A DNA stretch of 5,733 nt from a virus (Duplodnaviria > Heunggongvirae > Uroviricota > Caudoviricetes). Below, piece by piece: positions 3,001-5,733 of the stretch; the stretch's first letter is position 1; each line of letters starts with the position of its first letter. The stretch lies in the IMG/VR virus record IMGVR_UViG_2698536574_000014. The stretch is one strand, 5' to 3'. A program made the position numbers.

Positions 3001-5733
3001 GCGTCAGTGAGGTTCCACTATGCGACATTAAATCCAGATAAGAAGTAGTCAACGAATGGCGATTTATCTGCATCCCCGTACGACTGATCCCTGCAACACG
3101 CTGTAACGTGGTATAGCTACTGTCACCAGACAATGTAACCGCTGTTGTACCTGGAAAGGTAACATGTGAAAAATCAGCAAAGCGATAAAAAACATTATTT
3201 GTCCTGTTAACAAATCCTGTCACATATAAATTATTTCGTTCAACAATAAGCCGTAGATTATTAAACCGCCCTTCCTCTGGATCTATCCCTCTGACATCAA
3301 CTGCAAACAAATTATCCCCTGAGCCACTATCAATCATCAGTAAAGACGTACCTCCTGATGAAATAGTCTGTAATGGAGTACCTATTGCAGAGCGAATGAC
3401 ATTCAGCGAATCTACATACGTCTTTGCAGTCGAGAAGTCTAAGGTAAATTCCTTCGCCACCACATTAACTGAAAAGATAACAAAGAAAAAAGTTAGCACT
3501 CTAAAAATAATTATTTTCATATTACACAATACTCCTTGAGCACCATACGATAACTATATTCTTGACATCCTCCACGCCCTGAAGGACGGCGTTTTACGGC
3601 GCACCGGATAAACGTAACAATAACGTAATGAAAATGATAATCATATTCAAAGAGAGCTGCAACCTTAACATATCTGGTCAGATCTCATGCGACTACTTGA
3701 CGTACGTAGATAACAACATTTATTGATACACAGGATGTTACGGACATAAAAAAGCCAGCCACTGGGGGAGGCTGGCAAACTCGTAGAGCAAAATGCTGTT
3801 ACGCAAACTTCGTTACAGGGTCATCCTGCAATACAAAAAATACACAATATTTAGAAAACTAATAGTGCCATGTGCAATTTTTAAGATTTTGTTATTAATT
3901 GTGGTCGCACCTTCCTTTCTGTGTACTTTCCGTATAGCTCACAGGATTCTGGGTACAAAAAAACCCGCGCATCGGCGGGTTAAGCAGCGTGGCAATGTAA
4001 CCACTCTTATCATGATATGCAGATTTTTACGATCGTAAACTATTTTTTCGCTGATAAAATACAGAGGTTCTCCCTCCCGGCAATTCACGCTCAACATACC
4101 GATCCATCTCAAGCCTCACTCCCAGCATCATCAGCATGCCTTCAACAATCCCCTCCGCTTTGTGAAGGCGTTTACCTATACAGGTGTCAGAGCACCCATG
4201 TTTCCGTGCCAGCGCCATGAACGTCTCCCCCAACACGTAATAATCAACCAGCAAGTCATGCAGATCGCTGTTGTTCCTGTTAAGGCGAGCCATACACCCG
4301 CATATAATCATCGCGTCATCGTCACAACACTGTGGACGTGATTTTACTTTTTCGGGGATCAGTCCCTTAAATCCGGCAGCAATGGGCGACCATGTAACAT
4401 CCTCATGGTTATTTGCCGCCCATGCCCCCCAGCGCTCAAGAACCTGCCGGATATCACGCATCAGTATCTTTACCCCATCCGCGATGAACCATAAGGACGC
4501 CATTGACGACGGCGTGCTTTTTCCCTTCTTTATCGCCAATGTATTTTCTGACTGTGGCACGATTGCAGTTCAGTATTCGGGCTACCTCGGACTGATTTCC
4601 ATATGCCTCAAGGAGCATGTCAGGAATGGTTTTTACGGTGAACGTCATGCGGCCTCACTTCTGCTGTTTCGCAGGTCTTTGAGTTTCTGTTGGTACCCTG
4701 CCTTGATCGCCTTGCACTCTTCGATAGTCCAGCGATGGCGGTTATGGTTTGATTCGATTTCGTCTACTGCTTCCTGCCCGATGCGGTTAATCAGTTCGAC
4801 GCGATACGGAACGAGATTTCCGCTTTTATGTTGGTTGCACACCACGCATTGCTTGTGAATATTGCGTTCATCAAATCGGAGTTGAGGTGCCGCAGCAGTT
4901 GTCCGGTAATGTCCGGCATCCCACTGAGCAGACGTGAGCGTTCCGCACGAGATACATGGTAAGTCGCGGTCTCTTTCTCTGATGAAGGCGTTTACGGCTT
5001 GTTGGGCTTGTTTAATCCAGTAACTGCGGGGCTTTAAGGCGAGTTTTCGAATCTTAATTTTATCTTTCTGTTTCTGCTCCTCTCGTCGTCGTTTCTTCTC
5101 TGCTGTTTTTTCCGCCTTTTCGCGTTCTTTATTTCGTCGTTCGAGCGCTAATTTAGTTCCGTGTTCCGGGCTGCACCACCACTGATTTGAGAATGCCGGG
5201 TGAAACCATTCCTTACAGATTTTGCATTTCCTTCGCGCTGGTTTAGCCATTAAGCAGCCTCCCCTGTTACTTTAAGCATTCCGTTATCTAGCAGCTTTCT
5301 TGTCAGCCACTGTTGACCACGCCCGGTGATTTTTGTGGTGAACGATATCTGTATTCCGTGATTTGTATTGACCGCTGTTTCTTTCACTGTGAAATAGCCG
5401 CGATCCATATATTCCTGCATTGGCACATTGCGCCGGGCACCTGAAGCAATAAGGATTTTGTGATCGCGCATCCACGCAAACAGTTTGTTTGGACCAATAC
5501 CAACAACCTTTGCAAAGTTTCCAATCAAAATTCCGCTGGCCTCGCCAACTCGATCGGCAAACTCAACTTTAGGTGCTGCGAGAGCAAGCTGTTTCTCCAG
5601 TTCAGCCTTCTGGTCTTCAAGGTCGGCCGCAAGGCGCAATGCCTCAGAAAAGGTTTGTGGTATTTTCGCGGTTGCCCCTTCGAGTTCTCGCCAGCGGTCA
5701 ACAAGGCGAGCGGTGAACTCTGGCGACAACTGG

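Follow-up and report, generated by a model that had tools for sequence, protein, structure and literature searches.

Introduction

Which RNA is transcribed between the late antiterminator gene Q and the toxin gene stx1A of an Stx1a prophage, and from which promoter, is the question raised by the IMG/VR virus record IMGVR_UViG_2698536574_000014 (Duplodnaviria; Heunggongvirae; Uroviricota; Caudoviricetes). The whole analysed stretch of 5,733 nucleotides (nt), called the window below, represents a lambdoid Stx1a prophage with the genes roi/ant, ninG, ninH, Q, stx1A and stx1B on the minus strand, to which all positions refer unless another strand is given. A preliminary description, made from the sequence of the window alone, proposed at 3746-3877 a module consisting of a late promoter pR' and a terminator tR', which should yield a short regulatory RNA in lysogens and Q-dependent read-through into stx1 upon induction. 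We show that the locus is already known: the terminator is the tR' of the Stx1 phage, and the RNA is the published small RNA (sRNA) StxS (stxS1, or EcOnc15). The whole region can, with high confidence, be read as a late-control cassette of the Q933 type whose distal part is stxS1, and its promoter lies upstream of the place suggested initially.

Identity of the transcript with StxS

Comparison with the stxS1 locus in prophage Sp15 of E. coli O157:H7 strain Sakai yielded zero mismatches over positions 4225..3712 of the window (100% identity), that is, over the stretch from Q to the terminator that contains the published StxS. The stx1B gene with the preceding 46 nt is likewise free of mismatches relative to Sp15, and the 500 nt interval between Q and stx1A is 100% identical to that of phage BP-4795 and of dozens of other Stx1a-converting phages. 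The identity of the 258-nt transcript to stxS2/933W is about 95%.

The properties of this transcript have been established experimentally on the identical sequence. In both Stx1 and Stx2a prophages, the distance from the pR' start, mapped by differential RNA sequencing (dRNA-seq), to the 3' end at tR', mapped by Term-seq, is 258 nt, and a species of about 74 nt is visible on Northern blots (PMC7547250). RNase E cleaves the long form, StxS-L, at GU|AUU (+173), which produces the stable, Hfq-bound StxS-S of about 74 nt; the 5' end of the latter was obtained by RLM-RACE, a rapid amplification of the ends of cDNA mediated by RNA ligase, without tobacco acid pyrophosphatase (TAP), and StxS-L builds up in the rne-3071 mutant at 44 C (PMC7547250). 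StxS activates rpoS and represses stx1B via two sites at the stx1B ribosome-binding region, the pairing with both targets being confirmed by compensatory mutations, and single deletions demonstrate that the Stx1 and Stx2a phages contribute about equally to StxS-S (PMC7547250). Thus, the start site, the 3' end, the processing by RNase E, the binding of Hfq and the regulation of rpoS and stx1B were all demonstrated by others, and the same published work bears out both functional parts of the initial proposal, the short RNA ending at tR' in lysogens and the Q-dependent read-through into stx1 upon induction (PMC7547250).

In a search of the whole window against Rfam 15 (E-value mode), zero families covered the StxS region, hence there is no Rfam model against which StxS could be tested. 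The only matches, STnc100 and AgvB/AsxR, are both situated downstream of stx1B.

The terminator tR'

The terminator tR', denoted T2 here, is formed by GCCAGCC (3776..3770) and GGCUGGC (3760..3754), separated by the 9-nt loop UCCCCCAGU (3769..3761) and followed by six U (3753..3748). Six of the seven pairs in the stem are G:C and one is A:U. The folding energy of the hairpin is -14.5 kcal/mol, compared to -7.1 +/- 2.0 kcal/mol for dinucleotide shuffles (z = -3.8; 0/200 shuffles were as good). T2 is located between the stop codon of Q (4029..4027) and the region of the stx1 promoter and Fur box (3662..3630), so the strong terminator with a 7-bp stem and six U, claimed initially from inspection, indeed exists at the expected position. 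It is annotated as a terminator in the records of 933W, of the Stx1 phage AP005153 and of Shigella phage 7888, and in the identical Sakai sequence the Term-seq 3' end falls at T2 (PMC7547250). T2 is absent from the output of our consensus terminator scan because its loop is 9 nt long and the scan was limited to loops of 8 nt or less. Stx1 and Stx2 phages cease to be homologous approximately 10-15 nt past T2. We also considered T2 as a bidirectional terminator and rejected this, as on the plus strand no T-run follows the hairpin.

The late promoter pR' and the start site

In the Q-stx1A interval of the minus strand, the best pair of hexamers, and the only one that matches the sigma-70 consensus in 9 of 12 positions, is TTTACG (4039..4034) and TATCAT (4017..4012), separated by 16 bp. 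This promoter, pR' (4012..4039), overlaps the end of Q, with the Q stop codon lying within the spacer, and its start is 258 nt from the end of T2. If transcription starts at A4005 (+/-1), three constraints agree simultaneously: the 9/12 promoter falls at -35/-10, GUAUU with the cut at +173 occupies +172..+176, and +258 is U3748 in the U-run. In the 933W record (NC_000924), the pR' feature corresponds to 4039..4012 of the window and 'qut' to 3998..3991, and terminators are marked twice, over 3979..3957 and over 3776..3748; in the record of phi345 (PV189402) the same promoter and the first of these terminators are annotated. Thus, the placement of pR' at 4039..4012 is supported by the 933W annotation, by the 258-nt geometry and by conservation across about 128 related loci. 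From these data we infer the exact window coordinates given here.

AGUGGUUACAUUGCCAC, the initial transcribed sequence (+1..+17; 3989..4005), opens the transcript; its invariant portion is GAGTGGTTAC...GCCAC. Written as AGUGGUUAC(A/U)U(U/C)GCCAC (3989..4005), it is nearly invariant over the Q clades and contains the inverted repeat GUGG...CCAC; presumably, it is a pause or loading signal read by the host RNA polymerase. The hexamer TACATT within it (3999..3994, +7..+12) resembles a -10 element (4/6), the counterpart in most relatives being TACTTC (2/6), and may be a sigma-dependent pause element.

Processing and the mature StxS-S

With the start and the terminator placed as above, the primary transcript StxS-L (258 nt) occupies 3748..4005. 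The RNA folds as a whole with -75.7 kcal/mol (z = -3.3). The RNase E site GUAUU is at 3830..3834, the cut falling between U3833 (+173) and A3832 (PMC7547250), and mature StxS-S spans 3748..3832, with the 5' end at 3832 according to dRNA-seq and the RNase E cut, at 3824 according to RLM-RACE, or at 3821 if 74 nt are counted from the 3' end.

The rpoS-activating seed of StxS-S, which pairs with the rpoS leader, is CCCUGUAACGAA (3820..3809). Its part UGUAACGAA (3817..3809) forms nine contiguous pairs with positions -115..-107 of rpoS, and CCC:GGG pairing extends the duplex to -103; DsrA, RprA and ArcZ target the same leader segment, -115..-103, and the seed is shared (PMC7547250). Among the 19 loci compared, there are seven distinct alleles of StxS-L, and all 18 variable columns are located in +1..+184, with zero in +185..+258; variation returns 10 nt beyond the StxS 3' end. 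The lack of variation in the final 74 nt fits selection acting on the mature sRNA together with the terminator.

For stx1B, RNAduplex gave -38.5 kcal/mol for StxS-S and the ribosome-binding region, compared to -34.6 +/- 4.5 kcal/mol for shuffles (90/500 as good; the calculation ignores intramolecular structure), and other parts of the mRNA outscored this region. Since this calculation is uninformative, the pairing with stx1B rests on the identity of the target to that in Sakai and on the published mutations (PMC7547250).

A conserved promoter-proximal terminator

The consensus scan found another strong intrinsic terminator, T1 (3957..3981, +25..+49), with a 7-bp stem (3981..3975 / 3968..3962), the loop CGAUGC and seven T (3963..3957), which folds with -11.3 kcal/mol. 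It lies between Q and the promoter proposed in the preliminary description, where T1 is not mentioned, and the 933W and phi345 records list it as a terminator. We infer that T1 acts as a terminator in the window.

At least 120 related loci were retrieved when viral contigs were scanned for TAAGAGTGGTTACnTnGCCAC, the initial transcribed sequence. The string AAGAGTGGTTACnTnGCCAC was observed in at least 120 viral contigs and is unchanged over the Q clades. The family comparison covers approximately 128 related loci, with 65 unique variants used for the folding of hairpins. Distant phages match only the first 55 nt or so of the transcript. The promoters of the family share the same geometry, with a -10 element TAnnnT, 6 nt, and then the A (+1) of AAGAG, and +1..+17 is almost invariant throughout these loci.

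Nearly all of the 65 variants have, within about 60 nt, a hairpin directly adjoining a T-run: 48 hairpins have energies of -7 kcal/mol or lower, most of the remaining ones are weaker (about -5.5 to -6.6 kcal/mol), and one variant has none. As the variants include unrelated stem sequences, the structure of T1 is conserved rather than its sequence. Some phages, such as 4A7 and VIT_AJPSC, have the hairpin in the T1 position as their sole terminator before the holin gene, and within the family the StxS body and T2 are confined to loci of the Q933 type. Thus, the generic tR' of this family appears to be T1, behind which StxS and T2 look like an addition. In another lineage of the family (L006, L009, L025, L097 and others), we observed an unrelated second terminator, GCCTTCAGTCCTGAAGGC with a T-run, at about +360, which follows an insert of about 300 nt with a small open reading frame (ORF).

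A candidate Q-binding dyad

A perfect 14-bp dyad, TTTACGATCGTAAA (4026..4039; -35..-22), extends over both the stop codon of Q and the -35 hexamer. A dyad followed by an A-run is present at this position in 128/128 related loci, and its sequence differs by group, the other types being GCGGTCCGC, GCGTACGC, TGTTATAACA and GGAATTCC. The dyad type goes with the clade to which the upstream Q belongs, even if Q is 0.5-2.6 kb off, and each of the 58 unique Q proteins has its nearest neighbour within its own dyad class. The median identity of Q between dyad classes is 0.37 in the C-terminal helix-turn-helix part vs 0.56 in the N-terminal part. The Q21 motif TGAGCA has zero occurrences in the promoters of this family. 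As the dyad tracks the Q clade and TGAGCA is absent, the dyad is a candidate Q-binding element of a different geometry; genetic linkage could also give the match between dyads and clades. A limited literature search found no description of the dyad.

Alternative readings of the locus

The preliminary description identified pR' with the pair TTGCAC (3877..3872) and TAAATA (3853..3848), separated by 18 bp and lying about 70-100 nt upstream of the terminator; the product of such an internal sigma-70 promoter would be an RNA of about 95 nt, from approximately 3841 to the terminator. Both hexamers do exist in the sequence, and the guess, flagged in that description as its weakest call, is understandable, as the AP005153 record holds nearly the same one: its depositors annotated as 'putative' the same -35 hexamer (3877..3871) and a -10 at 3851..3846, shifted by 2 nt. 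An RNA 5' end also exists in the interval 3780-3900, where a start had been expected, at 3832 (or 3824 by RLM-RACE), and in the Stx2a phage it was scored as primary by dRNA-seq (PMC7547250). However, it is a monophosphorylated product of RNase E, dependent on this enzyme and seen without TAP, rather than a start, and it is at least 9 nt away from the start predicted for the internal promoter (PMC7547250). The pair itself (3848..3877) is a match of chance level, with 3/6 positions in each hexamer and without the conserved final T in TAAATA: among minus-strand pairs with 16-18-bp spacers, 88 are equal or better in the 520 nt between Q and stx1A, and 512 on the whole strand. In Stx2a phages, which yield similar amounts of StxS (PMC7547250), TTGCAC reads TCGCAT. 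A Q-responsive promoter at 3877..3848 would moreover be situated inside StxS-L (+129..+158), downstream of T1, and would have neither a pause nor a Q-loading element of the family type. Finally, the mapped pR' start is 258 nt from the 3' end (PMC7547250), so that the proposed placement is off by about 160 nt. The internal promoter is thus largely refuted, and we consider it highly improbable. Hardly more plausible is a dual origin of StxS-S, from the RNase E cut as well as from a weak start inside the transcript, at A3832, served by the hexamer at 3844..3839. In Stx2a alleles (933W, Sakai Sp5), the substitution G3843A turns TGTATT to TATATT (5/6), exactly 6 nt before A3832, and this may account for the primary-start call upstream of stx2AB; in the window, however, the hexamer is TGTATT, with G in place of the A essential at position 2, a usable -35 for such a start is missing, and the RLM-RACE product does not depend on TAP (PMC7547250).

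A different possibility concerns the role of T1. If T1 were the principal tR', most pR' transcripts in lysogens would end at about +50 (near 3956), only the transcripts that read through T1 would give rise to StxS, and the StxS body with T2 would be an add-on inserted between a generic pR'-tR' and the late genes. The canonical structure of T1, the retention of a hairpin with a T-run in its position across nearly all variants, its role as the sole pre-holin terminator in 4A7 and VIT_AJPSC, the restriction of the StxS body and T2 to Q933-type loci, and the phi345 record, which labels T1 as the terminator, all argue for this arrangement. On the other hand, StxS is plentiful enough to be seen on Northern blots and in Hfq cross-linking, and the 3' end of the pR' transcript was mapped to T2 with no product of about 50 nt reported, with the reservation that the libraries may lose such short RNAs (PMC7547250). 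We regard this arrangement as possible, yet the less likely one; it refines rather than contradicts the reading of the locus as a Q933-type cassette ending in stxS1. Equally tentative is its extension, in which T1 is the main tR' of the family, the StxS body and T2 form a moron-like cassette, and the dosage of StxS is set, and possibly regulated, by read-through at T1; linked to it is the suggestion that the dyad over the -35 hexamer may be the Q933 site.

Several points weigh against our preferred reading, that is, a Q933-type cassette with stxS1 as the distal part. The data on expression, Hfq binding and regulation come from Sakai, a different strain with the identical sequence. The Q allele is not that of Sakai: it differs at about 26 nucleotide positions, all in the N-terminal two thirds, the C-terminal 66 codons being identical to those of Sp15 Q. 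T1 appears efficient and would then limit the supply of polymerase to T2 in lysogens, and PMC7547250 is silent on T1. For the Stx2a phage, dRNA-seq called the 5' end of StxS-S a primary start (PMC7547250), which leaves some room for internal initiation. Lastly, the Sakai coordinates given in PMC7547250 (2,926,201 and 2,925,944) do not directly fit NC_002695.2. Their direct transfer, which we tried and rejected, leads to window positions 3870 and 3613, with no terminator there and no GUAUU at +173. We attribute the misfit to an older genome version (the offset is 135 nt at Sp15 and about 142 nt at Sp5); hence our mapping rests on internal consistency and not on the published coordinates.

Proposed mechanism of regulation

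In the cassette as we read it, sigma-70 RNA polymerase would initiate constitutively at pR' (+1 = A4005), just past the stop codon of Q. In the absence of Q, those transcripts that pass T1 would end at tR' (T2), giving the 258-nt StxS-L, which RNase E would cleave at 3833|3832 to the stable Hfq-binding StxS-S of about 74-85 nt. The latter would pair through its seed with the rpoS leader, leading to activation, and with the stx1B ribosome-binding region, repressing basal Stx1. Upon induction, Q of the PF06530 family would load onto RNA polymerase at pR', and the modified polymerase would pass both T1 and T2 and transcribe stx1AB and the lysis genes; in Sakai, the holin and endolysin genes are situated further downstream.

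Comparison with known systems

The closest system is stxS1 of Sakai Sp15 (Sy, Lan and Tree 2020; PMC7547250), which matches the window nucleotide for nucleotide over pR', T1, the StxS body, tR' and the last third of Q, and has an identical stx1B target. The RNA is identical, and the differences concern the host strain, the phage backbone (here that of a BP-4795-like Stx1a phage) and the N-terminal two thirds of Q.

The pR'-qut-tR' regions of H-19B and 933W share with the window the Q type, the pR' hexamers, the initial transcribed sequence and two terminators at equal spacing. These regions were reportedly described by Neely and Friedman in 1998 and by Plunkett et al. in 1999. In the alignment with the pR'/qut region of 933W, which the preliminary description had suggested, the identity of the module is 95.1-95.7%, and all 13 substitutions are located upstream of +185. 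Downstream of tR' the two phages differ: in 933W, three tRNA genes with a tRNA promoter precede stx2, whereas the window has the Fur-regulated stx1 promoter region.

The logic is the same as in pR'-6S RNA-tR' of lambda, with a constitutive late promoter after Q, a leader terminated in lysogens and Q-dependent read-through. However, the window Q belongs to PF06530 and the lambda Q to the unrelated PF03589, there is no sequence similarity between the promoters and leaders, and the window has two terminators and a leader that is processed to a trans-acting Hfq-dependent sRNA.

Q21 of phage 21 (6jnx, 6p18; PMC6606751, bioRxiv 10.1101/651190) belongs to the same Pfam family, called Q21/Q933W in Yin et al., and the match of our Q product to these solved structures is weak but significant. 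By analogy, the mechanism may be expected to be shared, with Q loading at a sigma-dependent promoter-proximal pause and narrowing of the RNA exit channel. At the Q21 site, TGAGCA is directly repeated (-21 and -13), whereas the family of the window has the dyad at -35..-22.

Genomic context

Upstream of the cassette, the window contains genes for a KilAC-domain antirepressor (5729..5250), NinG (5250..4645) and NinH (4648..4454), all identified by Pfam, and Q (4027..4461), a late antiterminator of 144 amino acids (aa) and of the Q933 type, with the stop codon TAA (PF06530 Phage_antitermQ, E = 5e-52). Compared to Sp15, the Q allele is a mosaic (4226..4700): from 4226 upstream there is approximately one substitution per 10 nt. 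This pattern suggests a recombination junction within Q, as the identity that covers the last 66 codons and extends down to 3712 gives way to substitutions upstream of 4226.

On the other side of tR', a promoter-like pair TTGCAG-17-TATCAT (3662..3634) overlaps the Fur box GAATATGATTATCATTTTC (3648..3630; 15/19 positions matching the consensus), and 3662..3630 is the iron-regulated stx1 promoter region. It is followed by stx1A (3520..2573) and stx1B (2563..2294). Just downstream of stx1B, we observed a full-length STnc100 (2002..2215, minus strand; 190.7 bits) and, on the plus strand, an anti-sRNA of the AgvB/AsxR type (1941..2000; 56.6 bits at a gathering score of 56). The latter is probably 'EcOnc42', which is located 3' of the toxin genes (PMC7547250). 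Further downstream, a run of 54 N at 1539..1592 (an assembly gap or masked sequence) breaks a long minus-strand frame, probably a homologue of ECs_2972 and possibly a nanS-p esterase. Antisense to StxS-L, there is a plus-strand ORF of 81 aa (3793..4038), listed as a 'hypothetical protein' in several records (e.g. ORF b69 in AP005153). It has zero Pfam matches and most likely is a spurious gene call.

Significance

The main finding is not new in itself; the gain is a correct coordinate map of the locus and the correction of a promoter guess that is also present in AP005153. The StxS module was found in 704 of 5,426 complete E. coli genomes (~13%), with a median of two copies where present. StxS ties the phage late switch to host physiology, through the activation of RpoS and the low basal level of Stx1 in lysogens, and hence its correct annotation matters for the genomes of Stx phages. 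The conserved promoter-proximal terminator and the dyad tracking the Q clade could be new and are modestly interesting leads. If the Q933 site is indeed palindromic, its geometry would be unlike the direct repeat of Q21, and the dyads would provide a readable specificity code across the Q clades.

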